Shown here one piece after another: positions 17,401-57,545 of a stretch of 64,000 nt of DNA. The position numbers and the translations under genes were made by a program. Each line of letters opens with the position of its first letter. Position 1 is the stretch's first letter. A model generated the notes under the pieces. It did no database searches. It was not told the DNA's origin and saw only the letters and a list, made by a program, of their open reading frames with translations. This DNA comes from Schmidtea polychroa (taxonomy: Eukaryota): assembly GCA_044892525.1 (NCBI GenBank), contig CM097887.1, forward strand, positions 23,622,001 to 23,686,000, read 5' to 3'.

Positions 17401-18128
17401 TCCAATTCCAGGAATATTTCGAATTCCAATTGCAATATCCTTCATGATGTTTTGAAGTCAATACCACGTATTTAGCTCCAGATGCATTAAATAGATCAGC
17501 CCATTTATCTGGATCGAATCTTTCAGCACGAAATTCTTTTGCAAAATTAGCATATGTAAATGATGGAGGATAATTATTAGCCATAAATTTGCCATAATTT
17601 GTCATGTTCACTCCCTGCCAGTACCACCAGAACCATTCACCAGCATGTGTGAAATCCCTAAAAATATTAATTATTTAAAATCATACACATTTGCAATAAG
17701 AAAACATTTTTATCAATAATAATTATTATTATTATTATATCGTAAACAAGTAAATAATAATATAAGCCTTTTGCTGTAAAATATGTATTAAAAAGAATTA
17801 TCTTATAATCGAAATTTTTGTCATTTAATATATACTTTTCACTAAAAAAGCTTATTTTATCATTTACTTGTTTAGCATTTAATTTAAGCTGCTACCAAGA
17901 AAGCATCGTTTTATATTATTATAATAATTATATTTAAAATTACAATTCTCACCCGAAACCTGGGACAGAAAAAACTCCCCAATGGATAAATATCCCTATT
18001 TTAGCTTCGTCGTACCAGTTAGGAAGAGGGCGGCTATCCAATGATTTCCAGTCAGGGGAGTATCGAACTGCATTGCAATTGGCATAAAGAGCAAATACTG
18101 AGCTAACTATCCAGATTGAAAATAACAT
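11485..18128 (-). CDS. FUCA: Alpha-L-fucosidase (GH29), 3 exons, 463 aa, intact
   Basis: Exon 1 18128-17953 (signal peptide [20 protein letters not shown], then [38 protein letters not shown]). Exon 2 17657-16901 ([15 protein letters not shown], nucleophile WSDGD, NDRWG). Exon 3 11943-11485 ([11 protein letters not shown] ... TGA). All GT-AG with matching phases; 1392 nt in total. FUCA1 versus FUCA2 is not resolved. Confidence 0.96.
13400..15030. repeat. Imperfect foldback / non-autonomous TIR element in FUCA intron 2
   Basis: AATATTTTTCGGGAGAAATGGATAT (13538-13562) is an imperfect inverted copy of 14899-14923, with weaker inverted similarity on either side. Ends are not defined. Confidence 0.4.
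15313..16000 (+). mobile_element. Merlin (IS1595/ISXO2-like) transposase pseudogene in FUCA intron 2
   Basis: FEWRC zinc-ribbon remnant, [52 protein letters not shown]. Frameshifts and stops present. Confidence 0.88.
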
Positions 18129-24814: not shown

Positions 24815-24840
24815 CTGATTGGATGAAAATTATTATATAA
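24815..24840 (+). promoter_or_regulatory. Inverted CCAAT box plus TATA box of LTR-A
   Basis: CTGATTGG 24815-24822 and TATATAA 24834-24840 at the end of a ~450 bp A-rich tract; mirrored in LTR-B. Confidence 0.65.
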
Positions 24841-26966
24841 GGCGGCCGTTAAGTTAGTTAAGTAACTTCTAAAAATTCATAACAGGTAAAAGCTTTTTTA
24901 TTAAAATCACAGTAACTTCTAAAAATTCATAACAGGACGATCCATCGACTTTAGCAAACAATTAATCAACTCCAAAAAATTCCATACAGGAACTCTAAAC
25001 GGAAACTTCTAGAAACCATAACAGATCAACTCAACTATTTAACAATTATTTTCGAGAAAACAATTACGAATTACAAATATTCATAAAAGGAACTAGAATT
25101 TCAGAAAACTCCAATAAACGATATCCATTCAGCTCCATTTTGAGAATATTCATTGAGAGAAATCAAATCGGATCCAAAAGTAAATATGAATTATGATTTA
25201 TTCATTTTTAAGAAAGATTTATGATATGATGATATTTGTAATTATATGAGTAAAATATTATCCTAATTTAACAATTTTCCATTCTCTCTTCACGGGGATG
25301 CCGGCGACGATATTTTCTGAACATCTGCACATGAGCTCTGAAGTCGTCCAGGAATTTATGATGAACAGAAAATCTATTATGCAATTCCCAATAAAATGGA
25401 ATGTCATCGATAGTAATGATCGAGAATCAGAAGGACAAAATTATATCCATAAAATGTTCTGCTATAGATGTATGAATCAAGAGAGACCATAACGTTTCCA
25501 ATGAAAATCCTGACGATGAGTATCATGAGCGGATTTCAGAGAATGTGGTCACTGGTAAGAGTTTATATATATGATAAATAATTATTTCATTATATTTTGA
25601 TTTCCTGAATTTATTGTAAAAATTTTATATAAGGGTCAAACCGTCTGGCATGGTAGTCCGAAAGTAGTTGGTACTTGTACCGGTGGTTTTCGGGTGGATC
25701 ATGAAAGGTGGTAAGACAAATACCGACTTTATAGATTTGCGATTTTAATGAGAGGCGATTTTGTGTATCATCTTCGAGGTGCAATCACCGGTCAAAACAC
25801 TAACAACACGAATTTTAGATGCTAAAGTATAGATTCCACAATAATTTCAAATCGATAGAAACTCTGATCTATAGGGTTCATGAAAAGTGAAGGTTTGAGA
25901 TCATGGTTTGCAGTGATAGGATATTTTTGATCAAACAAAATTTTGTAAGAGCAATTCATACACAGAGTAGCATTCATCACAATCTTGAGTCAAATAAAAT
26001 CCCACATTCGTTGTATTATAGGGCCAGCCGATGACTTCCTATTTCGATAGAGAACTCCAATTTTTCGATGAACCGTCCTGACGTAGATAGACATCAGAAA
26101 GTCATTGTCGTCCCGAAAAACTTCGGTCGGCATTAATTTCCTCGAATGACACGAGCGATTCGGTAATGAGATAAACAATTTCCACTCATCCATAAACCTC
26201 GAATTACAATAAATTGTTTATAGGTCACATAAACATAGAACGAAAAGTTTATATAAAACGTAAATTGTAATTTCCACAATTTAATACGCGTCTTCCAGGA
26301 TGTAGTTCATACTAATAAATTTTCGGAATTTGTATCATCATTTCACCGACTAATACAATACCAACGCTGCGGGATACTATCAACACAAGTTCAACCATAA
26401 ACACGGTAAATACAATAACTCTATTTCCGTCTGACATTATGATCGACAATTAAGTAAATAAACCACTGTAAATTGGAAATCATGTAATCAAAATCAAATG
26501 CACAAGTAGACGTCTTGGATTCAGCATAATTACGATGGAGTATTATAAACATCCAGCTACAAAAGGACACATAATTAAGATGATTTTTATTTATTAAACA
26601 TTAACGTAATTCCACCTAATAATAATTAAGGCAAATGAAAGATTATGCGATAATTTTTAAATTAACATAATTGATAAAGGGACGGAGGACTTATTAATGT
26701 TTTATTGCGGGAATAAATTGATAAACAATTCACAATTATAGCTATACGGTTTTTAATTAGAAATTAGAGTTAAAAATTGATCAAATCCTTCCCAAGAGTA
26801 AATGCTAAGCAAGTAAATGTGTTACGAGTTGAAGGTACGACTAAAATATACTAATAACTTCTCTGATCCGAACGTTTGTTGTTTCTTTCAAATCGACGAG
26901 CGAGCATATCGATCCATTGTTTAACTAGGTATTTAGCAGGACTATAATCCATTACTTCTTTCAGTT

Positions 26967-27742
26967 ATGACAGAATCAAACCCAGCTATTCGCAGTTTAA
27001 AACCTTGATAATCCTGCTCAGACAAGAATATGGACATTAAAAAACTTCAAGAGCATATAGGGGTCCTGAAAAAGCGTATCGAAACGCTCGAACACACGTG
27101 GTTCTCCCCGCCACAGATGAAAGAGGAAAAATGAAAGTCCTCAGATTAAAACACTGTCGGGACAGTTTGTTGGAGGAAAGCCGCTGTCTGAGCGTCTGAC
27201 AATTAAGGCACAATCTGAAGCCTTACATAAAATCTATACAGATTCGGAAATACAGAAACGGGTGAGAGAATACCCAATTAAAGATTGGACCAACATCTTT
27301 CCTAGCCACCATCAAATTGAAGAACTCAAAGCGTCTGAACTAGCAAGTTGCTCGGGACATGGACCCATGTTCCCAGAAATTTCAACACCGCTTCTAAGCA
27401 CAACATCAAAGGAACCAACTTCTGTCGCACCCAGTCTTCATAACCCTTCTAACGACATTTCTGATTCCAATGCCGAGAAAGAGGCAAATGCGATCCCAAA
27501 GAAGCGAAAGCGGCCTTGAGAGCCGAGCGGACGGCAAAGCGAAGGGAAAAAATGGAAACCCTGGAAGCCACGTTATTTGCGGATCAGTCAGCTATTGAAA
27601 AAATCAACACTAAACAATCAATCAATCAAAGACACTCCCTGATAACTTCAGAGTGATTTCCTCAATAACTACAGTACCTCCGACGGACCCTTGGTTGCAA
27701 GTTGATATAGATGCGCTGTTAACTGAAGGGGAAATGACATAA
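26967..27742 (+). pseudogene. Degenerate paralog of the LTR-B ORF
   Basis: TTTCAG acceptor 2 nt before the ATG. Gives SCSDKN...IKKLQEHIG..KKRIETLEHTWFSPPQMKE...HCRDSLLEESR...QSEALHKIY..NIFPSHH...KKRKR...VDIDALL, with stops and frameshifts. Confidence 0.85.
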
Positions 27743-28233
27743 ATCTCTGCATGGGTCGAGCCGATGCAATTCGCAAAGTATCTTGTAAATAGCATGTGCG
27801 GAAATGCTGCAAATTTCATCGAGACATTCATAAAACTGATCTTGTTTTCATTAACTAATTTAGCTAAGTGTTTTTGATGTGATTAAATTAATATATTTGC
27901 TATGGTGTTTGACTTCTAATGATAGTTAGTATGCTTCAACCGTTTGCCTTGATGGAGATGTTTTCCTTATTCCCGAAACTGGAATATTGTCAGTGTAACC
28001 GGCGCTACTGGCTCGTTTCATTTTCCAGGCGTCGATCTGCCTTCATTTATAATAACATATTAGCATTCTAGTTTGCCGTTCATGGATTTCGTCGATACCG
28101 GTTCAAATTTCTCACTAGGGTGTACATCAAGGTGATTGAATATATTGACAGGGAGACGAGTATGTCTGAGTTTAGTGACGAAAGTGAGAGATATAAAACA
28201 TCGGACCAGGGACGTGAGAATGATGTTAAGGGA

Positions 28234-28355
28234 TAAGTCCTTCTATCGGCACCCGCAAACCTGAACCGAGAAGACTGTGGAGAGTAGTCCTAACATAGGG
28301 GCTCACCTGTCCACCGATTATGACCTGCGTATATATTTCCAACATGAATCATCTC
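28234..28355 (+). other. Conserved structured element near the 3' end of LTR-A
   Basis: TAAGTCCTTCTATCGGC (28234-28250), then GTGGA-GAGTAGTCCTAACA-TAGG-GGCTCA-CCTG-TCCAC (28277-28314); homologous to 43771-43855. Confidence 0.7.
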
Positions 28356-29369
28356 CACAGGTATACGTAAGGGAGATCAATCGTAAGTCATGAAGGGTGT
28401 TTAGGGAAAAAACCTGAGCATAACATCAACCACCCTAAGCACCCAACACAATTTTGTCGACACAAGACATATTCGAACTGGGCAACTTCCTTTGATGCTT
28501 CCTCGATCGATTGAATCTGCTGGATTGATAGTTTTCACTGAAACTTTGGAGAATTTGGATAAAAAGTTTTGATAAAAATTAAGAAAGTGAAATATAGAGA
28601 GTTTTAAAAACTATGGTTTTGTGGTTAAATAATTAAGTCTTGAAAATGACCTTTCTCCAGTACAACTAGTGACTATTAAACTGAGAGACAGTCGCAAAAT
28701 TGATTACACATTTTATATTAACATGTCTTTCATATTACAGAGCTAACATGAATATAAAAGAACGTAGGGATATCAGTGAGCCGAACGCGCTGATATTAAT
28801 TTATACATTTTGAATGTTTATTTATTAGTCATATGCGTAGAATTTCTCCTTATTTTCGGTCCAATGTATCAGTGATCACTGTTTTTAGAATAGTGTAATT
28901 TTAATTTTATCAACAATTTCAATATAAGCCCCTCTTGATCTTGAGGACCTAGACTGAAGCCTAGATAGTTGATAGGAAAATCCCGCCCTGCTTATACGAT
29001 GGGAATAATATAAACAAAATTTCTGTTTTATTATAAAGTAAGCACATATGCACAGTAACAAATTTGAACTGCTACTGCCTAATGCACAGATGAACAAGTC
29101 AAAAATACAATCTTTGACTCTCAGCCAATATTTTCTCACGTGGAAACATACGTTTCTGGTCATGAAGAGGTTAACTATTTTTCAAAAAATTATTTTTGTT
29201 TGATAATTATCCTCCTTGCCATAATGTGTGTATTACATTTGTTGGGGCTGGGCTCGCTTAGGCAGCAATTTTGATAGCCATATAGAGGCTAGGGTTATAA
29301 TTATAATAATAATAAATAATTACTTATTAATAAAAATAGAAATAATTCCTATAAATAAGTTAAGATAAG

Positions 29370-31540: not shown

Positions 31541-34500
31541 GGACAGGTAACTCTAGAATTACAGAAGAATGTGGGAGAAGCTGGACCCGAATCATGCGAC
31601 TCTCTGGAATTCCAAACTCAGATGCGACCCGATACATTATGAGCATTCTGCTGGAGACAAACGATCACAGCCGAGAAGGAGATTGCATGGCCCTCAAGCT
31701 TCTTACCTCAATAACCAAGAAGACAGAGGAGGAATATGAGATAAACAGGCGAGATTGTTTGGATTTTTCTAATAATTTAAATAACCTTAATAATAAATTA
31801 AAAAAGAATTCTCAAACCCAAAAATCTTTAAATGATGATAGCCTTTTTGACCAAAACAGAAATGAATACAACAAGATTGTTAATAGCTTTATAAATCCTA
31901 CCCTGCAATATATGCCTATTGACAGGGGAAACGTAGATCTTAATCCGAATAAGCCCAGTTATAGAGACGCCCTTATTGGAAGCAAATCATCTTATAATAA
32001 ACTCCCCATGGGAAAATCCTTCTCTGTGCCTCCAAATAATAAGACGGTATCTAATAATCATCGAAATACCCTTAAAGACTTCGAAACTGAAACTATGCCA
32101 ACACCAGTACCAATTAATGATAATAAAAATAGACCTACTAATAACCCAAATAGGAACAATAATCTTGGTTCTAACAGATCAAAAACCAGTTATTATGATA
32201 ATAAAAACAATTTGCATTATAATACATTGAATCATTATTCTAATAATTATGAAACTACTTCTTATAAAAATTCAAATAAACTGAATCATAATGATATTAA
32301 AGCTACCTCTACTAATAACTCTAATGATTATACAATCACCGGAATATTAATTGCATGGAGAAACCCGATTAAAAATGATTACATGATAAATGTAAACGAG
32401 GCATTCACAAGAGGGGAAAATACGTTGATGAGGGAAGCAATGAAAGGACACAATTTATTCGAAATTCCAAACCAATTATTAGAACGAGGAATAAAGTTCA
32501 CGAACCATAAAGACGAACAGCTACTAAAGAAACGAATCGACACCTTCGAAAAATCAATATTTCAGTTCATAAACAAAGTATGAGATAGATATTGGGTTAG
32601 TGTATTATATATGATGAATACGATGAACAATATCCGCGAGAATTACCTAGACATTATTCAAGTACTTACAGCAGAAGAACGAATCAATAACTCAACCGGA
32701 AAGGAAATAAAAATAAAGAAAGGAGTATCAAAGGAACCGAAGTCGCAAACGAATCAAACTACAACAAATAACGTTACCGAAACAAAACTAATAAATTCAG
32801 ATCAAGAAACAATAATACGCAAAGCCAAAGAAGTGTTCTTCGAAGAAATGCAAGAGTTATCAGACGAAATGATATTGTCAAAAATAATGAAAACCGTACA
32901 TACGTATGCAAGAGATCAAACAACGAATTTAGATATAGGGAAAATCAAAACCTTCATGCCACGAGCATTCACTATGGTAACAAAAGATCAACGAACACCA
33001 TTACAACAGGCAATACTGGCAGCAAAAGAAAACCGAGCGATAACGATCATATGAATCCTCAGAGATTTGGGTGACGAAACCAACACGAAAAACGAACAGG
33101 GCGAAACAGCGATGATGTATGCAGCTATAACAAAAATACACCCAAAAACACTACACATACTACATCAATCCGGATCAAGACTAGACGAGATATCAAACGA
33201 AGGAAACTCCACAATGGATTGGGCAACCATACAGCCAAACCTAGAATTGATCAGATTTATTTGCAAAAATGCGACAAGAGAGGAAGTTGAAAATATCTGC
33301 AAAAACACATCTCAATTCCAGTGGAATACCGTACGAAAAAATCTGGAAGCAATGAAATTACTATTAACATGGAAAATACCGCAAAGTAATAAATACGCGA
33401 TAAACGTAAACGAATTTTATGAAAACGGAGAAAATGCGATGGTCAAAAATACATTAACTAAAGGGGGGACACCAAAAATCATACTAATTGTATTAAATAG
33501 AGAAGATCTGAGATTCACAAAAAACCAAAACGAACAGCAACGAATTGGAAAACACCGCCGTGTACAACTAAGAGAATTAGTAAAAGAATGGAATCGGAAA
33601 AGACACGCAGCAACCGGAAGAAAGGAGTTCGAATTTGAAGCTAAATTAGCAAGAAATAGAGTGTTAACAGCATATCGCAGACTATTGAACGATATAAATG
33701 TCGAGGACGACATTTTAAACGACGGCGGGGGAGACAAAGACGATGATAATGACGGGAAAGGTCAAAAGGAAGATAAAGAGAAAAGAAAGCCGGATGAGAA
33801 TAACCAAGAAAACAAAGACCCAGGTACGGAAAAGGAGGGAAACAACCCGGAGAACGAGATGAAAGGGGAGGAAAAAACAAATAATGGAAAACAGAGGGTA
33901 TGCCTACCTTTCACCAACAAAGAAATGGAAACAAATATGATATTATTGATAATTGTGCTGACCATGATAGAGTTAGTAACAGCCCATGGAGGAACGAGAA
34001 CGATAGAAGAGACCAAAGAAGCGGATAATCACGACAACAAACAGGAAGAACTAAAACAAGAAAAGAAAAAGCAAGTGCAAGAGCAACAATGGGATCTAAA
34101 AGAGGAATGGAATCTAAAGGAAAGGTGTATACTAGGAAGATGCATGTCTAGAGCATATCAGAGATTAGTGTTGATAAACGAGGACACAGAACCAATAACG
34201 GAAGTGGGAATACAAGAAGCATACCAACATCGAAACGGGAAGAGAATAACGAAGGTAAAATGGAAGGAGATACACCTAGGGAAAGGAGGCGAGATAGCGA
34301 TAACAGAACTCCAACCAAGGAAAGAACACAAAGTCTGTATCTCAAGGTTAGGACCGGGAGAAAACTGCCTACAATATGTAATACAGCAACAACCACCAAA
34401 AGAATATACGGTCTGTATCATAAGGAAAGGACCGGAAAGGGAATGCCGACGATACCCGGGGAAAAGAGGAAAGAAAAGAAAAATCAACGACAAAGGAGAA

Positions 34501-34974
34501 GAGAAGGAAAAACGCAAGAAAACCAATGAGAAAAACCAAGACAATTATGTGTCAGAAGAAGAAATGGAAAAAATACAAAATATGGCAAAAGAAGGTATCA
34601 GCGAGGAGATAGCAAGAATACGAGGGATGATGAAGGGAAATGGGAAAAGGGGAATCGAGAAAAACACAAAGACGGTATCAACAATTACGAACAAAGAAAA
34701 ATCAGAAATTATCAGCGTAAATCAGATGATATGGATCAGTGGAATAATAATAACCCGAGCGTTCATAATTATAACGGGGGGGGACGATAAAAATAATCCG
34801 AGACAAAAGACAGCGTCACCAACTCGAAATGATCAGAGTCAGAAATTTCCAACATCGAGTGAAAAGACCCAGCAAAATAAGCCAAGAACAGTGGATGGAG
34901 GCCTGGAATACGCAGCGCCCTCCAAATCCACGGATATAGAAAGGGTTATGACTGTATATAATTGTAAAAAGTAA
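31540..34974 (+). pseudogene. Cassette ORF1: ~1145-codon ankyrin-repeat / membrane protein, 5' end missing, two in-frame TGA
   Basis: ORFs 31522-32583, 32611-33054 and 33067-34974 are one frame broken only by TGA at 32581 and 33052. Order: Asn-rich region, three ankyrin repeats (RTPLQQAI, GETAMMYAA, GNSTMDWA), charged linker, hydrophobic MILLIIVLTMIELVTA, tandem Cys motif (KEHKVC..C / KEYTVC..C), second hydrophobic segment. Confidence 0.7.
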
Positions 34975-35101
34975 GTATATCTTATGTATATAACAGTACC
35001 ATATTTTTATATAAACGCGGTATAAATATTATAAAAGCTCGGGTAAATAAACAATATAAAATTAAATAAGACAAAGATTGAGAATGTATATAAAATTAAG
35101 A

Positions 35102-35461
35102 ATGGATCAAGTAAATCACGAAATAAACCACAACATCGCAACCGAAGACATGTGGAAGCAACAATGCGCTGTGCTAGCACAATTAGTATCTAATCTACAA
35201 GAGCAAGGACTTACGATGCAAAGAAACCTAGTCGATAGTCTAAACAGAGGATTTAGTTATTTAAAAATAATTGAGGATCAGAGGATAAAAATCGAACAAA
35301 TGCAAAGAGAGATAGAACGGATAACACGATATAGTCAGAGACAAGAAATCGAATTAGAGAGAATGGCGGAAGAAGCAGAACAAGAAGAAATGGAAGACTG
35401 GTCAGAATGGTTAATGAGGAGAGAGGAGGGCGGACATGAAGCCGACTCGTCTGAACCATAA
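35102..35461 (+). CDS. Cassette ORF2: small coiled-coil protein with acidic tail
   Basis: Open ORF with heptads. ATG at 35102 follows TTAAG-A. Confidence 0.6.
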   Translation: MDQVNHEINHNIATEDMWKQQCAVLAQLVSNLQEQGLTMQRNLVDSLNRGFSYLKIIEDQRIKIEQMQREIERITRYSQRQEIELERMAEEAEQEEMEDWSEWLMRREEGGHEADSSEP

Positions 35462-35545
35462 ATAAAACCCAAACTAGATGTAAATAATTGTAAATAAAAT
35501 ATCGAACCTGTATCGATAAGAAACTATATGTATATAATTGTAGAC

Positions 35546-36881
35546 ATGGATAAAGAGAGACGAGAGGAGTTTAACGTAATCATTGAACTAGTCAGAAATT
35601 CCACAGTAATCAAAATACAAAAACATGTTATGTGCGGAATATGTGAAAAGTTGTTAAAAGAACCCCATCAAACCAAATGCGGATGCAGATTATGCAAAAA
35701 ATGCATAGAAGAAACAATAAAAAACAGACCACAGTGGTGTCCGGTATGTAAAGAGACACTGATATCAAGTTTAGAAGATACCAATGAAGATAAGGCCGCA
35801 GTAAAAGATATGTTGAACGCTAATCTGGGATGCAAAAATACTCCATGCGAGTGGAAAGGATTAATATGGAAAGTAAAACAACATATGGGGGAATGTATGT
35901 ATAGAGTCAGCCAGTGTGAACGATGCCAGAAAATAATCCAAGCTAACGAAGAAAAAGAACATCAAAGTCAATGTGAAGAAAGGCTAGAAATATGTGAGTA
36001 TTGCGGAGAGATAGACACATGGAAAAACTTAACCATCAAACATCACAATGTACAAGAAGAACAGGTATGCGCTGAATTCTGTGGTGAATGCCCAAATGGA
36101 TGTGATAAAGGCGGAAGGATAAAAATAGCACAGCACTTAAAGGAATGTGAAAAGAAAAGAATGATATGTGTACTAGGCAAATGGGGCTGTCGGAAACTAC
36201 TACACCGAGGGGAATTACCACACCACTTAACAGAAAATGTAGCCACTCACGCAGAAATGTGGTCAACTGCGTTACAAGAAAATGAAGAAAAGGTTTAACA
36301 AATGGAGATAGAAATAACATCGTTGAAAGCATTGGTAAAGGAACTATTGGAGGAAAGAGAAGCGTTCGAGGAAGCCCGAGCAAACATAAAGATGCAAATA
36401 AATCGGATAGAGATCAGTAATAATCAGGCCAAGGAACTACATCAGAAAATAAACGAAATAAATCTAAACGAGGTAATACCAACAGCGCCTTATATATGGA
36501 AAATAACAGGAGTAAAAGAAAAGATACGAAAAGCAAAAACTGGGGAAGAGACAAGAATAACAAGTCCTGCATTCCATTCTTGGAAGAACGGGTATAAAAT
36601 GAAAATGAAGATATATCCCAACGGGGACGGAACCGGATTAGATACACACTTTTCGATAATCTTTCTGTTATGTAAAGAGGAATATGACGAAATATTAGAA
36701 TGGCCGTTTCAGGCAAAAGTCGACATTATAATAATGAACGATCAAAGCATACACGAGCAAAGCTTCAAAACAACGGGGAATCAGATAGCCTACCAGAGAC
36801 CCCTCGACGAAGAAGGATCAGCAACGGGAGCACCTACGTTCATTCTGCAACGGAAAGTGGAAGAGATGACGAGAAACGACA

Positions 36882-36957
<76 letters not shown>

Positions 36958-36996
36958 ATGACAGTGAGGAAAGACGGAAAGAGCCGAACAGAGTAG
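35546..36996 (+). pseudogene. TRAF: Cassette ORF3: intronless TRAF-family protein (RING, TRAF zinc fingers, coiled coil, MATH)
   Basis: RING CGIC...CGCRLCKKC...CPVC; CKNTPCEWKG; CERC/CEYC/CPNGC fingers; MATH YIWKI...GYKMKMKIYPNGDGTG..HFS...EYDEILEWPF. One in-frame TAA at 36296. A (TA)n expansion shifts the last strand DTIYIKMTV out of frame. The specific paralog is not assignable. Confidence 0.92.
36884..36954. repeat. (AT)35 microsatellite inside the TRAF MATH domain
   Basis: 71 nt AT run in place of the ATA TAT ATA codons. Confidence 0.95.
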
Positions 36997-37182
36997 CCAG
37001 TGTGAATAATGTTGTATATAATTTGTATATATCGGTGCATATAACCAATAAAATAGTATATAATAAAGGTATGGGAACCTCAAATACGACAACCCAAAAA
37101 TGAAGCGAAAAATCTGTGAAAAACATTAATTGAATAATAAAATTGTTACAAAAATGAATTTATCAATACCTCTAATTTAGAA

Positions 37183-38091
37183 ATGACACAAGAGCAAATA
37201 ACCACAAGTACTGAGGGTCCAGCAATAATCAGAATTAGTGAGGAAAACAAGAGGAAGTGGACTACAGTAATGTCTCAATTAGCCAACCTAACTAGAAATC
37301 ACATTGAAGAGGCTAGGGAGTATGAAAATAATAAATATCGATGGCTAGTAGACAATTTGAGAGCCGAGGCAGAAGCGTGCAAAAGAGCCTCTAAGTGGGC
37401 GTCGTTAGAAAATACCCGTCAGGAAGCGCACAGTCACTACCTAAAACAGCTAGTGCAAGAAGCAAGAAAGAGACTTACTGATGAGAACACAAAACGAGAA
37501 GCGGAAAAGCAAAGAGAAGGAAGGAAAATGATCCACCTATTGGCAGAAGCCAGGAAATGGAAGCGACAAAGCAGAGAGATAATAAAGGAAATGAAGGAAT
37601 TGCCTACGAGATTAAAATACGAAAGCGAACAGGGCAAATGGGAGGAGAATCTAATCCTAAAGGAGGAACAAAAACGGCTAAGAAAAATTGCCGCCCGAAG
37701 TCAAACATGGCAGACTAAGGCCATGGAGTTTGAAAGACACTTAGCAATGAAGATCTCCATAAGGGAACACGAAAATGCCGCAATGGAAGAGATGATACTA
37801 CAGCAATCGGGACGAGTCGTGGAATTAGCAAATAAAGTCGCCGAGCTAGAACGGGATAACAATGGGTATAAAGGAGCTCTGGAACAGAGAAATATGGTAC
37901 TGGAGGGGAAAAATAAAAAGCTAGAGATCGAAAGGAAAATGTATGATGAAAATATTAAAAATTTAGAAATAGAGATCGAAAAATGGAAGGGCGACGAAAA
38001 AATCAAGGCACTAGACAGACAAATAGAGGTGAAGGACGAGGTACCTCACCTATTTGCTCGACGAGGAACTCAACATTTCAAGGGCACTTAG
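37183..38091 (+). CDS. Cassette ORF4: 302 aa E/K/R-rich coiled-coil protein
   Basis: Open ORF with continuous helical/heptad character. ATG follows TTTAG-AA. Confidence 0.7.
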   Translation: MTQEQITTSTEGPAIIRISEENKRKWTTVMSQLANLTRNHIEEAREYENNKYRWLVDNLRAEAEACKRASKWASLENTRQEAHSHYLKQLVQEARKRLTDENTKREAEKQREGRKMIHLLAEARKWKRQSREIIKEMKELPTRLKYESEQGKWEENLILKEEQKRLRKIAARSQTWQTKAMEFERHLAMKISIREHENAAMEEMILQQSGRVVELANKVAELERDNNGYKGALEQRNMVLEGKNKKLEIERKMYDENIKNLEIEIEKWKGDEKIKALDRQIEVKDEVPHLFARRGTQHFKGT

Positions 38092-38401
38092 AGATGAAAT
38101 TCACAAGCTGAGAGCTCAAATTCCCCAACACTATGTACCTTACGACCCCGTTGCTATCCAGTTACGGTCTTCAGTCGAGAGCGACGAAGGATACGTGGGG
38201 CAAGAGGAGACCTTCGTGTAAATAAATACTATGATTAAAAAGACAAAAAAATTATAAAATCGGGACCTATATCCCAAACAAAAAAATTAAAGGTATAGTA
38301 AAAGTATCCAAGGGACTGTAACCCTAATTATCTAAAATTGCATATGAATGTATAAGTATAAGCCGCATTATAGCGCACTATTAATTGTACATATTATAGA
38401 C

Positions 38402-39103
38402 ATGAAGATTGAAGAAATAGTAGAGCTCATGAGTGACGTAGAAGAAAGAGAGATGGAAGCAGAAACCACAGAAACACAAATGCTAAAGGAAGAGTTATGG
38501 GAAGAGAAGCGTGAAAACGAGAGATTAGTAAACAAATACATAGAAGACCGGAAAATAATAAAAGTACTAAAGAAAGAGTGTAAAGTATTAGGAGAAGTAA
38601 AGAGAAAAGTTGAAGAGGAAAACGAATGACTTCACGAACAAAGGAAGCGAGGGAAAAACTGGGAAAAGATCGCGGAAGAATTATGGCAAGAAAGAGCCAG
38701 TAGAAAAGCAGACGAAGTAATTAGCGATTATTGGAAAACAGAGGCACGGAAACACCAAGAAAGCCTGAAAGAGTTACAACTCCAACTACATCATAAACAA
38801 AAGGAATGTGAAATAATGAGAAGAATGAACCACAAATACCAAGAAATAGACGATGAGAAGAGAAACAGAGAAGATGGAGAAAGAGAAAAGTACTTTCTAC
38901 AACTGATGAATCATAAAAACTTAGAGAGAGCCACCCAAGAAATAAAAGTATTAAAAAGAAAAATAAAAATCCTAAAACAACAGGTAGATGAAAAAGACAA
39001 ACAACTAGAAGTACTACCCGAATTAAGAAAACGGGTAATAAAAGCAGAAACTAAAGTGATGAGAGCATCTGAGAAAGCCCGAAAAAAGAAAGCCCTTCAA
39101 TAA
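38402..39103 (+). pseudogene. Cassette ORF5: coiled-coil protein with one in-frame TGA (38627)
   Basis: ORFs ending 38629 and starting 38816 share a frame with no other stop. ATG at 38402 follows TATAG-AC. Confidence 0.7.
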
Positions 39104-39157
39104 TTAAAGATGAATAATCGATGTGAATAATGGTAAATAAAAAATATGTATAATAGT

Positions 39158-39796
39158 ATGTGGCCCGGAGCAACCCTCGTAATAATGATAATAATAATAA
39201 ACGAAATTCAAGCGAAACAGTCAACCCAAAAAGGCCAGAAGATTACCGAGAATCAGATTTTCCCACAAGACCTCATAACCAAATTAAGAAACGGAAGAAA
39301 ATCCTACAACCACATCCAGAAACAATGTTGGAACAAAGCCGTCTGGCAAAAGATTCAAACGCAACTCATCCTGCAAACCCAAAAAATCGAACAACTCAAA
39401 ACTCTTCTACAAAAACAAACTATCCAACAATCCTTGAAAGAAACCATCGTGAAGAAGGAAGCCAAAGAGAGTCAAGTCTTACTCTATATTACAATCAGTG
39501 AAACCATCATCATCTGCACGCTAGTCATCTGGAAAGCGTATGATATCCATCGAACATGGCAAAGAAATCAGCCACTTACCGAGAAACCCAAAAGAAAGAA
39601 ACCACGAACAAGAAACGTACCAAAGCGGACAGTACATTTTCAACAATCCGATCCACCTGACCTATCTCCCAGCCAGATACCCGCGACAATTCAACTCACC
39701 ACAGCGACAACATCGACAAGCCATCCAATCCAGAATTCCCAAGATTCTCGACAATCAACCAGCGATGACAGTAATCATGACATCGACTATCCATGA
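39158..39796 (+). CDS. Cassette ORF6: predicted type I membrane protein
   Basis: Signal peptide MWPGATLVIMIIIINEIQA, Q/K-rich helical ectodomain, TM VLLYITISETIIICTLVIW, basic then S/T/P-rich tail. ATG follows AATAG-T. Confidence 0.65.
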   Translation: MWPGATLVIMIIIINEIQAKQSTQKGQKITENQIFPQDLITKLRNGRKSYNHIQKQCWNKAVWQKIQTQLILQTQKIEQLKTLLQKQTIQQSLKETIVKKEAKESQVLLYITISETIIICTLVIWKAYDIHRTWQRNQPLTEKPKRKKPRTRNVPKRTVHFQQSDPPDLSPSQIPATIQLTTATTSTSHPIQNSQDSRQSTSDDSNHDIDYP

Positions 39797-39921
39797 ACTT
39801 TGTGTATATAAATCTGGTCACCTTAAGTGACATCTGCTTGCTTTATATTTGTCCTTTAACCAGTAATATAGTCTTGTTTTATTTTTGCTTTTTATGTATG
39901 CATGAAGTAAGTTGAGTATGC

Positions 39922-39959
39922 AATTGCGGGACGCAATTTTGTCGGGTCCCCGAGTGATT
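39922..39959 (+). promoter_or_regulatory. Pre-LTR hairpins at the expected polypurine-tract position
   Basis: AATTGCG-GGA-CGCAATT (7 bp stem), TTT, then TCGGG-TC-CCCGA and GTGATT immediately before TGTTGGG. Not a canonical purine run. Confidence 0.4.
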
Positions 39960-40292
39960 TGTTGGGCTGAGTCGAAAACTTAACTTTTGAAAATTTAGAA
40001 AATAAGACAGTAGGATATTAAAGAAAATAAAAATAAAATAAATAAATTCAGGAATAAAATAGAATAAGAAATAAGAGAAACAATAATTAGAAAATAAGAA
40101 TTAAAACAAAATAAAAATAAGAAAAATTAAAATAAGACAATTGAATGACGAACAAAATAATGTAAAATTCAATAAATAATGAGGAAATTAAGGAAATAAA
40201 TAGAAAATATAGTAAAAATAAAGGAAATAAGGAAAAATAACCAAAAAACAGGAAAAAGTAAATTAAATTAAGAAAATAAGCGGTACTCAATT

Positions 40293-40329
40293 CTGATTGG
40301 TCCGCATACATGCAAAAATACTATATAAA
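40293..40329 (+). promoter_or_regulatory. Inverted CCAAT box plus TATA box of LTR-B
   Basis: CTGATTGG 40293-40300 and TATATAAA 40322-40329 after a ~300 bp A-rich tract. Confidence 0.7.
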
Positions 40330-42752
40330 CAGACACGAAACTCATTGCAATCACTGTTAATTTCAACTTGCTATAGACGATAACCACGCAGAATTTACGG
40401 AACCTACTCAAAGAATAATATTCAACACGAAATCATCGCTATTTAAGGAAACGACAGGATCAAGGACTAATAGACAAACCTCACAGGAAACTAGCTCGTA
40501 AACTTCGACTCAGCCCACAATAAATTTCGAATCGATAACTATAGTAAGAAAAGTTTCTATTTGTTTTTAGATTATTAATTATTATGAAGTATTACCTAAC
40601 GATTGAAAACTTTGTTTAATAATAGCGTGTCTTTTCATTTGATTTCCCCGTAATGGATTTTGATTAAATTAACTATTTTAATGTCTTATAGTAAACATTC
40701 ATAAATAAATTATTTATTTCAGGAAGTTTTTGATGATGTGTTTTCATGCATGAATATCTTACGAATCTAAATTTTTATGAGAAACGTGGCGTTAAGACGG
40801 ATGGCGTCATGGTAAGAGGTGCCTTCGGGAGCTCTGCCGGTGGACGTGCATCGTTTCAATCACGCAGCTGGATTGGGCCTGAAAGTGAGGGTCCAATCGC
40901 TGAAGATGACTTAAAATTTGATTTGAGTGACAGAAATTTGGTCATAGTAGTAGTTCTAAGCCTATAATGGAGTATAGCTATGCGATTTACAGTGATTGAG
41001 GTGAACACTCTATCTATACGTACAAGCTCCGAGGGTACTGAGTAGCTCTTCGAGAGAAACATGCGAGCTAATAATGAAAATCTCTGAAGTGACTGTCTCT
41101 ATTCGTTCGAAACTTGGCTCTAAGCTCGAGTGAAATTTAGTCTCCATTTACTTTGACAATAATTACGTTTTTCGGAAATCATCTTTTACCTTCTAAGAAA
41201 GTACAATCACGGCGGGTATAAAAGAAATTCAATCATAAATTAAGACATATGAGGACATTTTATTTAAAACACCGTTATGAACAGATTGTCTACTACCTGA
41301 ATCAGTCTCCTTTTCTACGACTCCACATGAGAGGCATCATCGTCGAAACAGCTCTTATAGTCACCTTCTAGTTAATCTAGGGAGACGTTTCCGCACCTGT
41401 TATATCCAACGGCGGAAGACACGATAGTTAGTGACGAAATCCAATTTCGTAGAACAGTTGTGAATTAATAGGCAATGATGCCATCATAAAATTTTCTAAC
41501 ACACGATAAGTAGATAAGTAAAGTCCAGCACACGTTAGTAGGTTCTATGAACACGGATTGGTGAGAAGTGAACGATTTGAATTTTCCAGCGTTACGTGCA
41601 TGGATTGATAAGAGGTTCATCAAGCAACACATGAATAGATAAACCTTATGAGAGTGATTGTTGATAAGCACACTGCCACTAATCTCACCTGACAGTACAC
41701 ACGATAAGATTTTGAGCAATGTGAATAGCAAGGAGTGATCACATTAGATAAGAAATAGCACGAAACGCAGAACTCCGGTTGTTAACTCTCAGATCATGTT
41801 GCTGATAAAATATTAATGTCACTAACCAGATAAATTAACCAAATCTGTAACCGACTGCAGAATGTCCAGACGCATTAAAGTACATTTATAAATTGACCCT
41901 TCTCAATTATCATCGAAATTGTTGGGTAATTATTGTAGACAATCCTAAATTTCAACTAAGCAATACGATAAAGTCATATGAGCCTTTACTACAGTGAATT
42001 GTCGGAAGTACGGTTAAACGCCTGAATAGATAAAATCCCATCCAAATGATTTCCAAAAGAATCCTAAATAATTAGACTAAATTTTCTAACCTAACTAATA
42101 AGCTTGTATTTTAAAAATTTCTAACCCCTTAGTAAATAATGCATGCTTATAACCCTGTCATGAGAATCACGAGTTACTCTACCGTTTGAGTATATTAATA
42201 TAATCCTACACTCCGGATAACAATCTCAAGGTGTGGTTTGAAGGTAGCACCAGTAGAAGGGTATGACGAGTGAATTGACTGAATTCAGTAGCGCTAATAG
42301 TATAACTCTGCAATAGTTTCGTTTTTCTAGAGACCTTAACTAGCAGCTCAAACAACAACCTAAAGTTAATTAAGCAAAAACCGACAGTACAGTAAATGAT
42401 AATACAACCTACTTTAACGGGTAATCAGCGATATTTTGAGTAATCACCATAGGAAAAAAATAATAGTTAGTAGTAGTCAACCAACCAGTAACAGTAAAAC
42501 GAATTATAATTAACCAGGGTAAGCAAAAAGCGGAGAATATTATAAGTAATTATTTAAGAGTAGTGTACGACATATCTGGCGCTACCGCTAAAATCGATCT
42601 AATAATAGGTTCAATAATTCCAAGGGAGGGTTCCTTTCTCTACTTCCTGTGTTTGTTTATATCTGATAGTAATTCAGCCACTACTCCCAATTCCCAATTC
42701 ACAGTCATAGTATAACTTAACCCTCATGTTTCCTTCTTTACAGTTATTCAAC

Positions 42753-43502
42753 ATGTTACCGAACAACAAGTCAGTACTACAGCCTTGCTTCTCCTGTGCA
42801 GATAAAAATGCAGTGATTAAAGATCTACAAACCCAGATCGGTCGATACAAGCGTAAAATCGACGAGCTGGAAGGCACATGGTTCAGCCCAGTGCAAATGA
42901 AAGAAGTGCAGAAAAAGCTATACCGTAGGGAGCACTGCCGGGACGCTCTAATCTCCGAGAGCCGCTCCCAACGAAGCTTAATTAAAGAACAATCCGAAGC
43001 GCTACATAAGGTATATGTACAAGCAGCAACAACTAAGAAAATCGTTCAAATCCCCCTCAATGAAGCCGATAATCTGTTCCCAGTGCACCACGACACCTCG
43101 GCGAAGTCATCGTCTCCATTTAAGAGATCATGTCGTGAGTGTGTAGAAACCGAGCTTTCACCGAAATGTCTAGATATTATCTTCACGGGGACTAGTAAAG
43201 CACAGCCCAACATCATACCCACATCCGCAGGGCCGCAGGTGAATCAACCAATATCGAAACCTAAACGCCGGCAACTATCGAGGGCCGAGCGCAAGAAGAG
43301 GCAGCGCGAACGAGCGTTAACCAAATCAAACAACCCCTCAACGGGAAATCCGATCAATATCGACAACTCCCACATATCCATCGATCTAACCACAGGAATC
43401 CCAGCGCGGATTATCTCAGCCGCTGGTGTGACATGGGAGGAAAATGCCGCCGAATTCTTCGATTTAGATGAATTGCTAAAAGACACCGAGTGGGAGAAAT
43501 GA
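42753..43502 (+). CDS. LTR-encoded 249 aa protein (CxxC, coiled coil, basic NLS-like tract, acidic-hydrophobic C-terminus)
   Basis: Intact ORF 9 nt after a TTTACAG acceptor (AG 42742-42743). Motifs CFSC, KPKRRQLSRAERKKRQRER and EFFDLDELLKDTEWEK*. Homolog at 26967-27742. Confidence 0.8.
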   Translation: MLPNNKSVLQPCFSCADKNAVIKDLQTQIGRYKRKIDELEGTWFSPVQMKEVQKKLYRREHCRDALISESRSQRSLIKEQSEALHKVYVQAATTKKIVQIPLNEADNLFPVHHDTSAKSSSPFKRSCRECVETELSPKCLDIIFTGTSKAQPNIIPTSAGPQVNQPISKPKRRQLSRAERKKRQRERALTKSNNPSTGNPINIDNSHISIDLTTGIPARIISAAGVTWEENAAEFFDLDELLKDTEWEK

Positions 43503-43770
43503 ACACCCACCGCGAAATGCTCTCCTTGACTACCATCTGATATACTCTTTTGTCTTGTATTTTCATTGATTCTCTCCCTTATGATAGTAACCTTTGCAAT
43601 GTACAAAATTCAGTGTTATAATATTATAATAAAAGTGTTGCTCTTATCTGTCTTTTGGTGAGGAATTACGTACCGATTTTTGGGTGAATGAAAGTTTTCT
43701 AGATTTGAAGTGTCTCAGTAAATTTGCATTCGGCGTACTTTAGCGGGGGTTTTGACAGCGTGATTAGACG

Positions 43771-43890
43771 TAAGCCCTCCTATCGGCGGTCGTGTGGAAG
43801 AAAGTCGAGGCCTCAGTAAGGAGTAGTTCTAAGGCAGGGGCTCACCTGCTTACTGGCGTCTCGTCGGCATAGTACAGTTCCAACGTGAAA
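43771..43890 (+). other. Conserved structured element near the 3' end of LTR-B
   Basis: TAAGCCCTCCTATCGGC (43771-43787), then CAGTAAG-GAGTAGTTCTAAGG-CAGG-GGCTCA-CCTG-CTTACTG (43814-43855). Confidence 0.7.
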
Positions 43891-44028
43891 TAATTCACGG
43901 GACTATGTTGAAGGATAGGTTATGTGGGGTTCTACTCAAATTTGACAAAAGGATAGCTATTAGGCGAAAATGGACAATCACCCCTTAGAGCGTTAATATA
44001 GGGCGGTCAACCGAGTGGTACCCCAACA

Positions 44029-48840: not shown

Positions 48841-51690
48841 CAGTGATTCCCGTCCCGTGGTAAGCGTACTCCTGGGGGTACGCGAAAAAATATTAGTAAT
48901 GGCAGATGTTAAATATAACTCCCGCCTCAATTTAGTTACAAAGCGGTGGCAAACATTGACAAAAAAAATTGTTTTAGCGCTCACTATTTATTCACAAAAT
49001 ATTTTTCAAAGTTATGTGTGCCCCTCGGAATCGCATGATCACATTACAACGGTTGTGTTAGAATTCAAGTGGACCCAATGTTACAAAGCGTGTCTATTGT
49101 AGTGTGACAAATTTTACTAATTTTACTAATATTACTAATTAATAACAACTTTATTTTCAAACGGTAAGTTTTAACATTATTTTAATTTCAAACTTAAATT
49201 AATTTCTAAATGAATTTAGGATTAAATATGGATCAGTGATTGAAAGCTGATACAATAAAAAACAATAAGCGTACACTAGAAAGTGACGAATTAGTTAGTA
49301 CTTCTCAAGTCACATCAAAAACACAAGTACAAATACAAAACACAGAAAATGTGCCGTCTTCAGTTCTGCAGATAGCTAAAAAGAGGAAATACTGCGACGA
49401 ATATATGAAATATGGATTTTCATATGCAGGAGGTGAAGACAGCCGTAAACCAAAATGTGTAGTATGTGGTGAAGAGCTATCAAATGGCAGTATTTTTTAC
49501 GTCATCTCCAAACAAAACATGCCAATTATTAAAACAAAGAATATGATTTTTTTAAACGCTTAGCAGCTCAAAATTTGAAGATGTCAGTTTGACATTGTAC
49601 ATCCTGCCAGCTAATAAAGATAACGAAAATGCGACTGAAGCTAGTTACCGCATTAGTTACTGTAACAATCATACAATTGCAGAGAATCTAATTCAACCAT
49701 GCATAGAAGATGCTTTTCGGTGTATGCTTGGAGAAGAACATGTGCAAAAAATAAAAAATATTCCTCTTACAATATCTCGAAGAATTTTGGATATGTCTGA
49801 TAATTTTGAGGCAACAGTGATTGATAGAATTAAAAACAATAAGGTTTTCGCTATAAAAGTTGATGAAAGCACGGATGTTGCAAATTTTGCTATTTTGCTT
49901 GTTATTGCGAGGTATTTAAAAGACAATGAAGCCGATGAAAACCTTTTACTTTGTCATGCTCTGTCAGAACACACAACAGGTGGGTATATATTCAAAGCTA
50001 TCGATTATTATTTCCAAGAAAAAGGCATAAATTGGTCTAATTGCTGTGGGTTTTGTACCGATGGTGGCAAGTCTATGTCAGGTATTTATTCCGGTCCGCG
50101 CGGTCGAGTCTTGAAGATTGCTCCCAAAATAAGTTGCTGTTGCATCCACAGGCAAAGTTTGGCATCTAAGTAAAAATAAAAAATATTCCTCTTACAATAT
50201 CTCGAAGAATTTTGGATATGTCTGATAATTTTGAGGCAACAGTGATTGATAGAATTAAAAACAATAAGGTTTTCGCTATAAAAGTTGATGAAAGCACGGA
50301 TGTTGCAAATTTTGCTATTTTGCTTGTTATTGCGAGGTATTTAAAAGACAATGAAGCCGATGAAAACCTTTTACTTTGTCATGCTCTGTCAGAACACACA
50401 ACAGGTGGGTATATATTCAAAGCTATCGATTATTATTTCCAAGAAAAAGGCATAAATTGGTCTAATTGCTGTGGGTTTTGTACCGATGGTGGCAAGTCTA
50501 TGTCAGGTATTTATTCCGGTCCGCGCGGTCGAGTCTTGAAGATTGCTCCCAAAATAAGTTGCTGTTGCATCCACAGGCAAAGTTTGGCATCTAAGTAAAA
50601 ATAAAAAATATTCCTCTTACAATATCTCGAAGAATTTTGGATATGTCTGATAATTTTGAGGCAACAGTGATTGATAGAATTAAAAACAATAAAGTCTTCG
50701 CTATAAAAGTTGATGAAAGCACGGATGTTGCAAATTTTGCTATTTTGCTTGTTATTGCGAGGTATTTAAAAGACAATGAAGCCGATGAAAACCTTTTACT
50801 TTGTCATGCTCTGTCAGAACACACAACAGGTGGGTATATATTCAAAGCTATCGATTATTATTTCCAAGAAAAAGGCATAAATTGGTCTAATTGCTGTGGG
50901 TTTTGTACCGATGGTGGCAAGTCTATGTCAGGTATTTATTCCGGTCCGCGCGGTCGAGTCTTGAAGATTGCTCCCAGAATAAGTTGCTGTTGCATCCACA
51001 GGCAAAGTTTGGCATCTAAGTTCCTTCCAGTGCAAATGAAGCGTATTTATCAGACATTTTCATACGTACAAACAATCTAAATTTAGCACTTCAAAATAAC
51101 TCTATATCGATATTCAATGTCTCGGATAAAATTGAATCAGTGATTAAAAAAATTAATTTTTGGAGAACATGTATTGAAAACTGTCAACCTGAGGTATTTG
51201 AAACTTTGCACAATTTCCTATCAGAACTTTGCCTCTCCAGAGAATTGAGCAACAAATATGAACACTTAAAAGAGCTAAAATCAAATTTCGAGAAGCATTT
51301 TCACAAACCTGATGTAGGAAACAATTGGATTTCAAATCCTCTCAATGACGAATACTTTCGAATAGCTTAATTTTCAATCACTGAAAAAGAGAACTTAATT
51401 GAACTTTCAAATGATTTTACTTTGAAAGTCGAATTTAAAGGAAAATGTCTTATTAACTTTTGGTCAGATATTAGTACCGAATATGAATTACTTTCTGCCA
51501 AAGCGCTTAACGTTTTGTTACCATTTATAAGTACAGTGCTGGTGGAAAGAGCATATATCTCCATATCTCTTTATTAAAAACAAATACAGTAATAAGCTGA
51601 ATGCAGCTAGAGATTTAAGATTATACCTTGCATCAATCGAACCTGACTTCAAAAACTATGCGCCTCAAAGCAATCTCAAGGATCTCACTA
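48841..51690 (+). mobile_element. hAT (Charlie/ZBED5-like) element, degenerate transposase
   Basis: Left end CAGTGATTCCC...GGGGGTACGCG. Motifs KRKYCDEYMKYGF, CVVC, VDESTDVA, CTDGG, CCIHRQ.LA and a hATC region ending QGSH*. Confidence 0.88.
49747..51021 (+). repeat. Tandem triplication, 3 x 425 bp, inside the hAT transposase
   Basis: Units 49747-50171, 50172-50596 and 50597-51021. Copies 1 and 2 look identical; copy 3 differs at about 3 positions. Confidence 0.95.
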
Positions 51691-51899: not shown

Positions 51900-52289
51900 C
51901 TAATAAGGGGTACAATTTAGGATAATGAACTTCCAAAAGGTACTCAAGCCAAAACCTCGACCTTTATAAGGATTGAGATATAAGCCCTTACCCTTCTTTT
52001 TCATTGAATCGATTTCAGTTTGTAATTTTTCTTTTTCCAAGTCTGTCTTTTGAGATTCTTTAGCTTTTTGAACTGTAGTTGCAATTCCTCCAGCTATTCC
52101 AGCAGCACCTGATAAACCTGCAATGATTGCAGGTATTAAAGCCATTAGGGGAAGAATCCCTTCAGTCTTCAGTCTTTCTTTAACCTGTTCTTTTACATGT
52201 TTTCCAATAAAATATTTTTTTCCATCAATTACTACTGATTTATTTTTATTTGAATTTATTAATTCTTGTAAAGATTCTTCAGTTGTCAT
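51900..52289 (-). CDS. Polinton-type small protein with amphipathic/hydrophobic helix and GxG motifs
   Basis: From Met 52289: ...EGILPLMALIPAIIAGLSGAAGIAGGIATTVQKAKE...KGKGLYL..KGRGF. Position next to the packaging ATPase fits a virion core or membrane-active protein. Confidence 0.65.
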   Translation of the reverse strand: MTTEESLQELINSNKNKSVVIDGKKYFIGKHVKEQVKERLKTEGILPLMALIPAIIAGLSGAAGIAGGIATTVQKAKESQKTDLEKEKLQTEIDSMKKKGKGLYLNPYKGRGFGLSTFWKFIILNCTPY

Positions 52290-52305
52290 TTTATAATAAA
52301 TAAAA

Positions 52306-53085
52306 ATGGATACTTGGAAACCAATTTTAACTCGGCACAAGAGTAAATTTAATAATAAATTATTTCCTGATAATTTTAGATTATTAATCGTTGGGTCTTC
52401 AGGTTGTGGAAAGAATGTACTTCTTTTGAGAATATTACTAGAAGAAGGGTTTTTAGATTATAATAATTTAATCTTTTATTCTACAACCATAAATCAACCA
52501 GAGTTACAACTTTTGAAATGTGGATTTGAAAATAAATTAACTAAAAAAGCTATAATTGATATTTTTAAAAATCAACATAGATGTCCTGATGAGGTTTTTC
52601 AACCTTGTGATATGATTGATTGGTACAAGGAAAAGATTTTAGAATCAGATAATAATAAAAATGATTACATTTCTGAAAATGAATGGATTAAAGTTTTATT
52701 CTCTAAGAAACCTGAAGATGTTTTACATTGTGATTTACTTCCTAAAGATGTAAAGAATCTAGTTATATTTGATGATGTTGTCAATATGAAAAACCAAGAA
52801 ATTCAAAAGAGTTACTTTACACGAGTTCGACATAATAATTGTAATGTTATTTATATATCTCAAACTTATTATGCTTTAGATAAAAACTCTATAAGAAATA
52901 ATTCTAATTGTTTTATATTTTTTAAGTTAGAAAAGCGTGATAAGAATATGATTTATAGTGATTTATTTTCAAATGTTGAACCTGATAAGCAAATATTTGA
53001 TATGTTTGTAGATAATCATTGGAAAGAAAAATATAATTATATTTATTTGGATAGAGAAGGTGAAATATGGAAATGTTTATTTTAG
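52306..53085 (+). CDS. A32/FtsK-like DNA packaging ATPase
   Basis: RLLIVGSSGCGKN (Walker A, N in place of T/S), LVIFDD (Walker B), RHNNCNVIYISQ, IRNN. Confidence 0.9.
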   Translation: MDTWKPILTRHKSKFNNKLFPDNFRLLIVGSSGCGKNVLLLRILLEEGFLDYNNLIFYSTTINQPELQLLKCGFENKLTKKAIIDIFKNQHRCPDEVFQPCDMIDWYKEKILESDNNKNDYISENEWIKVLFSKKPEDVLHCDLLPKDVKNLVIFDDVVNMKNQEIQKSYFTRVRHNNCNVIYISQTYYALDKNSIRNNSNCFIFFKLEKRDKNMIYSDLFSNVEPDKQIFDMFVDNHWKEKYNYIYLDREGEIWKCLF

Positions 53086-53096
53086 AGCTTGTCGAC

Positions 53097-55972: not shown

Positions 55973-55988
55973 TTTTAAAAGTTAAAAA

Positions 55989-57441: not shown

Positions 57442-57545
57442 TTTTTATATTACTAAATTAGCAATTGCGCAGCTTGCTAGTTTTTAAGATTTAAAATTTT
57501 TAGAATTTTATAAATATAAAATTTTAAAAAATGACAAAAATCCGA

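Follow-up and report, generated by a model that had tools for sequence, protein, structure and literature searches.

Complex retroviruses are marked by dedicated regulatory proteins that work with RNA response elements. In the portion of PMC12789967 available, Rex and Rem are described as binding structured elements, multimerising and exporting unspliced RNA, Sag as a U3-encoded membrane protein of type II, and Tas as the product of an internal promoter in env. Polyadenylation in foamy virus is controlled by a splice donor upstream of the signal, according to the part of PMC3694450 available. For planarians, the accessible text of PMC6431247 describes the Burro/GYPSM1 elements as ~30 kb long, with one polyprotein that carries gag, a zinc knuckle, an env-like fusion domain, PR-RT-RH-IN and ankyrin repeats; no gene inside the LTR is mentioned in that text.

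The window analysed here, 64,000 nucleotides of the Schmidtea polychroa genome, contains on its plus strand a 4,069-bp LTR with TG..CA ends (39960..44028) that belongs to a 5'-truncated, Burro-like giant Gypsy element. Its terminal sequences (TGTTGGG..CCCAACA) are those of the LTR pairs of four full-length relatives, in which LTRs of 4.0-4.2 kb, 99.9-100% identical within a pair, lie ~26 kb apart to give a total of ~30 kb. The preceding flank matches that of other 3' LTRs, identifying the window copy as a 3' LTR and not a solo one. That flank is an internal remnant of the same element (32332..39959, plus strand), stop-broken and 75-83% identical in DNA to the full-length copies, in which Pfam recognised the ankyrin end of the polyprotein and a TRAF-like RING and MATH ORF, accompanied by coiled-coil ORFs. 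The polyprotein of the full-length relatives matched Retrotrans_gag, zf-CCHC, Monjiviricetes_fusion (E = 1e-67), RVP, RVT_1, RNase H, rve and ankyrin repeats in Pfam, with the env-like fusion domain between gag and pol and the Gypsy order PR-RT-RH-IN; a TRAF-like ORF and coiled-coil ORFs follow downstream, completing a cargo of MATH/TRAF, ankyrin and coiled-coil parts. No BIR or BCL2 domain was found in the two clade-1 polyprotein stretches scanned, and a BIR domain is present in a sister clade. Size, polyprotein order, the env-like domain between gag and pol, and the TRAF/MATH and coiled-coil cargo are all as in Burro/GYPSM1; unlike in the latter, TRAF here, and IAP in another clade, are encoded by separate ORFs downstream of pol. 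The host element matches the Burro elements of planarians, as far as these are described in the available parts of PMC6431247 and PMC11410931.

A second LTR in the window, LTR-A (24815..28448, plus strand, left end unmapped), belongs to a second clade, and has a TATA box at 24834 and an acceptor at 26959-26964. Exons of a host alpha-L-fucosidase gene lie elsewhere in the window, at 11485-17674 on the minus strand; the hAT transposons and the two LTRs are situated within the gene of this region or upstream of it. Three tandem 425-nt copies of 99% identity (49747-51021) sit inside a hAT-like transposase remnant. A Polinton/adintovirus-like remnant at 51900-57444, with A32 ATPase, phospholipase A2-like and double jelly-roll genes, is split by a Tc1-type transposon (53544-55068) whose inverted ends measure 217 nt.

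The initial annotation had reported an intact 249-aa ORF inside the LTR, with a CxxC motif, a coiled coil, a basic tract and the ending EFFDLDELL, and both its coordinates (42753..43502, plus strand; ATG at 42753, TGA at 43500-43502) and its motifs were confirmed. The protein begins with a CxxC (aa 12-15) and a coiled coil with a WFSP kink (aa 15-94), followed by a variable linker with a second CxxC (aa 127-130), an Arg/Lys helix (aa 169-187) and the acidic-hydrophobic tail (aa 234-242). AlphaFold2 placed helices at aa 15-42 and 46-94, with a mean pLDDT of only 56. The basic tract has the character of an arginine-rich motif, with 11 K+R in aa 170-192 on a predicted helix. The tail lies behind a disordered stretch and has 8 D/E among the final 20 residues, and in 49 of 55 open clade-1 copies it conforms to FF(D/N)L(D/E)(D/E)L; we take it to resemble acidic activation motifs. 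The order of interaction domain, basic tract and acidic tail is presumably also comparable to that of Tas. No canonical leucine-rich CRM1 export signal was seen by eye; the tail fits the usual pattern poorly and is absent in clade 3.

Neither Pfam, word-indexed protein searches nor PDB sequences gave a match for the protein, and viral contigs and the ESM Atlas (best score 0.83) gave none either. Structure prediction had also been suggested: with the AlphaFold2 model (pLDDT 56) as query, Foldseek returned no match in the PDB or among viral structures. Pfam, PDB and Foldseek revealed no resemblance, in sequence or in fold, to Rev, Rex, Tat, Tas or Tax, and no host homologue or known domain emerged from Pfam and the protein searches. 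As judged from these comparisons, the ORF belongs to a conserved family without a named relative, and its product is a member of none of these retroviral regulator families by homology.

Homologues occur in the LTRs of two further clades. A broken homologue inside LTR-A (26967-27743, plus strand) was located by tblastn. The earlier statement that it keeps the quoted motifs was borne out (matches at 26997-27733, combined E = 3e-21; the VDIDALL piece alone gave E = 1.8), as was the remark that the surrounding DNA is unalignable, since no DNA alignment of one LTR with the other was listed by self-blastn. Second-clade proteins, including that of LTR-A, are 33-36% identical to the clade-1 protein, lie directly behind an acceptor, and keep the CxxC, WFSP, basic tract and a D-hydrophobic-D tail, of the form D(I/L)D(E/T)(L/M)L at an overall identity of ~35%. 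In a third, IAP-bearing clade, a homologue of 21-24% identity lies inside LTR pairs; a profile built from clades 1 and 2 scored 20-30 bits on it, compared to at most 7.6 for 200 shuffles. This third-clade protein has the coiled coil and basic tract and lacks the CxxC, the acidic tail and an ATG before the coil. A profile search of 1.84 billion representatives gave a sole match, the unnamed 157-aa public protein P0001, which is of the short third-clade type and likewise lacks CxxC and acidic tail. The coiled coil and the basic tract are the parts common to all three clades and P0001. One third-clade LTR (L187) has two genes, encoding a 120-aa protein behind an acceptor (6054-6413) and the short ORF homologue (6590-7091); the former ends in RKRGRPRK, which we take to be an AT-hook-like motif. 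A further candidate, an IAP gene inside the third-clade LTR, was rejected, as that gene is internal.

The family is large and under selection. A search for family members with an estimate of dN/dS had been recommended; the protein has at least 150 matches in its own 781-Mb genome (150 scored of 6,393 candidates), many of them identical pairs ~26 kb apart, and dN/dS is ~0.09. Sixty of these matches were fetched and combined with the window copy; the 61 copies comprise 31 solo LTRs with exact 4-bp target duplications, five 3' LTRs, one 5' LTR and 24 unclassified. The ORF is open from the ATG in 55 of the 61, a sample that was picked through protein similarity. The median dN/dS was 0.094 in the 505 unsaturated pairs of 1,485 (dS > 0.1 required; 962 saturated), and every one was below 1, while the shifted frames gave 1.4, 2.0, 1.3 and 2.3 and the antisense shadow frame 0.19. 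Synonymous sites of the clade-1 copies are near saturation with pN at 0.15; between the window copy and its nearest relative, dN is 0.036 and dS 0.109. In a separate sample picked through the non-coding 3' block (n = 29), the ORF was found in 28 copies and was intact in 9 (10 with L164, which was mis-scored via a second match). Because only 9-10 of 29 copies chosen by non-coding DNA are intact, selection acts on the replicating lineages, and most inserted copies decay.

DNA similarity between copies is limited to the LTR start with its CCAAT and TATA boxes, a block spanning 40770-40920, the region that begins at the acceptor and includes the ORF, and the 3' block (43765..44028, plus strand), which is non-coding and could be aligned in 57 of 60 copies. 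The 3' block includes the 8-nt palindrome GAGGCCTC at 43807-43814 and a 30-40 nt core common to the second clade, and is possibly a dimerisation or priming structure. A primer-binding-like sequence, presumably akin to a tRNA-Pro site, begins 7-8 nt past the LTR end in other loci (L031:7621-7650, L187:7516).

The remaining signals, all on the plus strand, outline a putative spliced transcription unit. A predicted core promoter (40293..40329), with a reverse CCAAT box at 40293-40300 and a TATA box at 40322-40329, was aligned in 49 of 60 copies, one of them in a nested LTR. It is followed by unit A, a predicted first exon at TATA+31 (40353..40376), and by a predicted non-coding leader exon (40377..40543) that is poor in ATG: from the repeat to donor 2, 5 ATG were counted in 6,041 nt over 41 copies, compared to 82 expected from composition. 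The predicted intron has 19 ATG per kb; in the window copy the leader has none, and 36 would precede the ORF if the RNA were unspliced. Donor 1, GT(A/G)AG, lies at ~TATA+55 in 43 of 49 copies. The window copy lacks the 45-nt unit containing it and keeps the predicted donor 2, GTAAG (40544..40548), which is found in its interval in 42 of 46 copies. Within the predicted intron, an AATAAA at 40704..40709 occurs in 40 of 48 copies, compared to 2 of 48 in the adjacent window and 123 of 588 elsewhere in the intron, and is a candidate poly(A) signal for the 3' end of genomic RNA. The predicted 3' splice site, a pyrimidine tract with CAG (42730..42743, AG at 42742-42743), ends 9 nt before the ATG; an acceptor 1-9 nt ahead of the ATG was found in 57 of 61 copies, compared to 162 of 12,200 random intron positions (1.3%), and a pyrimidine-rich AG before the ATG is kept by all 61. 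After the ORF, an AATAAA (43628..43633) followed by T/G-rich sequence falls in one 50-nt slot in 55 of 61 copies and in 2 of 244 control slots; the copies are mutually related, so the independence of these counts is overstated. Judging from the motifs, genomic RNA may end near the AATAAA at 40704 or after the ORF.

We infer splicing into the 42743 acceptor from these DNA signals. The third clade also points to splicing, since similarity there starts at an acceptor-like AG and no ATG precedes the conserved coil. No junction into the acceptor appeared among the listed matches of assembled contigs from presumed RNA runs; these were mostly <90% identical, covered parts of related ORFs and did not span the site, and they weigh neither for splicing nor against it. 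Among nine pairs with large deletions, the seven that could be evaluated showed no exact GT-AG loss; this, together with the acceptor AG present in 61 of 61 copies, indicates that the copied RNA retains the long intron. Several further candidates were set aside. A GTAAG at 40812 is part of a hairpin stem and is not conserved as GT, and conservation is likewise missing for a second TATA ahead of the distal AATAAA. Loose poly-A ends at 40248 (run X5) were left unused as RNA evidence given the A-rich tract there, and a 400-nt extra segment in L083 resembles an insertion of an inverted repeat. A single LTR contains the promoter, the donors, the acceptor, the ORF and the poly(A) signal, and these parts are conserved, unlike the stretches between them. 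The LTR had been proposed to be a self-contained expression unit even when solo, and the presence of all these signals within it, with 31 of 61 copies solo, agrees with this at the DNA level; the window copy itself, however, is a 3' LTR without donor 1.

In most copies, the predicted first exon is doubled. Unit A, single in the window copy, is repeated around a GT(A/G)AG donor in 36 of 47 parsed copies: a unit of 24-26 nt at TATA+30/31 recurs 44-50 nt downstream, behind the donor (loci L051-L110 and L166-L185). The two units are alike at 21.8 of 22 positions within one copy and at 13.5 of 22 between copies, which shows that they are homogenised per copy. A doubled unit is also present in 8 of 21 second-clade loci, including LTR-A (24860-24936). 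In 9 of 36 copies the second unit is preceded by a G, the first unit in none of 36, and of seven segments missing just past the unit, five end in AG (background 9%). On these patterns, it is possible that the doubled unit reflects a short intron that is removed by splicing from the 5' end of the RNA and restored during strand transfer; slippage between the repeats could account for it instead.

The block at 40770-40920, inside the predicted intron, contains a conserved two-hairpin RNA structure (40785..40907, plus strand), of which the window copy has a version 12 nt shorter in the inner stem of hairpin 2. In 33 of 50 available copies, 96% of cells are paired and 15 of 48 pairs have changed on both sides; none of 500 shuffles reached as high a covariation and all six slid controls were lower, the structure having been derived from the same alignment that scored the covariation. 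The block had no match in Rfam. The hairpin model matches young clade-1 elements, and a search with it drew a blank in 19 loci of the second clade, in LTR-A of the window and in the one third-clade locus covered. Other strong folds are present in the corresponding interval of one second-clade LTR. The pair lies ~430 nt from the predicted transcription start, and could equally be a packaging signal or an export element for a host factor.

We tentatively favour, at somewhat less than even confidence, the hypothesis that the ORF product is a Rev/Rex-type regulator of the element's own RNA. This reading is ranked first because of the invariant coiled coil and Arg/Lys helix, the long intron kept in the copied RNA, and the conserved structure within that intron. 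Transcription would start at TATA+31, and a short ATG-free leader would be spliced to the acceptor at 42743, with the mRNA ending after 43633, so that any LTR, paired or solo, would make the ORF protein first. The protein would oligomerise through its predicted coiled coil and then enter the nucleus, where the arginine-rich helix would bind the hairpin pair in the very intron removed from its own mRNA. Binding would favour the unspliced full-length RNA, which would keep the intron and have to pass two AATAAA signals in order to be copied. The acidic tail and the CxxC, found in two clades, would be accessory parts with an effector or stabilising role. Against the Rev/Rex-type reading stand the absence of a clear export signal, the clade-restricted hairpin, and the lack of similarity to Rev or Rex; the tail, kept across two clades that are only ~35% identical, suits a coactivator-binding motif and also counts against it.

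That tail bears on a possible, if doubtful, alternative, a transactivator like Tas, Tax or Tat, whose basic tract would serve nuclear entry or nucleic-acid binding; dimers would form through the coiled coil, and the tail would bring a coactivator to the LTR promoter in a positive feedback loop. The initial annotation had called the protein transactivator-like, and the part of this that stood is the tail, present in 49 of 55 open clade-1 copies and in clade 2; the RKRGRPRK end of the second gene in the third-clade LTR is a further point in its favour. However, tail and CxxC are missing from clade 3 and P0001, no DNA-binding fold was recognised by Pfam or Foldseek, and ~430 nt from the predicted start is far for a TAR-like element. 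The third-clade result helped to move the ranking from a transactivator first to a Rev/Rex-type regulator first.

A host-directed factor, that is, an anti-silencing or cell-survival adaptor shielding the element or the host cell in the manner of the TRAF- or IAP-type cargo, is unlikely. An LxxLL-like tail can bind host scaffolds, and TRAF-like and IAP genes occur in the same elements. In the available parts of the respective sources, SMEDWI-2 represses Burro1 (PMC8532177), and the B-IAP of this element is reportedly protective of stem cells (cited in PMC13465017). However, the searches yielded no host homologue or known domain, and a host-directed role leaves the position downstream of the promoter and beside an RNA element unexplained. 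The basic helix and coiled coil, and the unusual length between the predicted start and the end of the LTR (the primer site is preceded by ~3.7 kb), would also suit a particle or reverse-transcription cofactor, a chaperone of the very long 5' RNA in packaging or strand transfer; since gag already has zinc knuckles and expression from every solo LTR would be an odd supply route for a particle protein, we consider this very unlikely. It is extremely improbable that the ORF is a non-functional one that arose by chance and was kept open through overlap with cis-acting LTR signals. Such an origin is in keeping with the lack of a named homologue and with about two-thirds of the copies chosen by non-coding DNA being broken, but not with near-saturated synonymous sites at a pN of 0.15 or with homologues in three clades. 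For the family it is refuted by dN/dS; for the window copy alone it is possible.

The retroviral analogies drawn earlier, to MMTV sag, foamy Tas and HTLV Tax, are loose, as the gene lies downstream of the LTR promoter. In the comparisons that follow, retroviral properties are those given in the available text of PMC12789967, unless another source is named. Like MMTV sag and HIV nef, the ORF has its coding sequence within an LTR; those genes, however, precede the main LTR promoter (in MMTV, U3 holds additional promoters further upstream), whereas the ORF is found 2.4 kb past the TATA box and is equipped with an acceptor and a poly(A) signal of its own. The Tas and HTLV Tax genes lie outside the LTR, no similarity to either was found, and the tail is missing in one clade. 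With Rev, Rex, Rem and Rec, the ORF product shares small size, a predicted spliced mRNA, a basic tract, likely oligomerisation, and structured RNA in or near the LTR; it differs in having no sequence or fold similarity to them and no clear export signal, in being encoded wholly in the LTR downstream of the promoter, and in its Gypsy host. The predicted donor ~160 nt upstream of the predicted AATAAA, both conserved in the LTR, parallels the arrangement in foamy virus (PMC3694450, available part).

Our literature search for an LTR-internal spliced ORF, an accessory transactivator, a Rev-like Gypsy protein or an LTR intron found no description of such a gene, nor of any dedicated regulatory protein with an RNA response element in Gypsy elements, and the Burro passages available contain none; Grohme et al. 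2018, Lee et al. 2026 or their supplements may contain one. While LTR-coded U3 ORFs are known (PMC12789967, available part), a gene under selection that follows the LTR promoter and carries a separate acceptor and poly(A) signal is apparently new in Gypsy elements. Taken further, Burro-type Gypsy elements may have independently evolved an LTR-housed version of the complex-retrovirus circuit, with an early spliced, arginine-rich oligomeric regulator, an intronic RNA response element, and a first intron lost from the packaged RNA by splicing and rebuilt from the duplicated first exon at each strand transfer; as a whole, we regard this as rather unlikely. If true, solo LTRs would supply the regulator in trans.

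The gene family in the LTRs of three Burro clades offers a handle on how giant elements set the balance between spliced and full-length RNA, and on why solo LTRs, in their hundreds, could act in trans in an animal whose stem-cell biology reportedly depends on Burro1.
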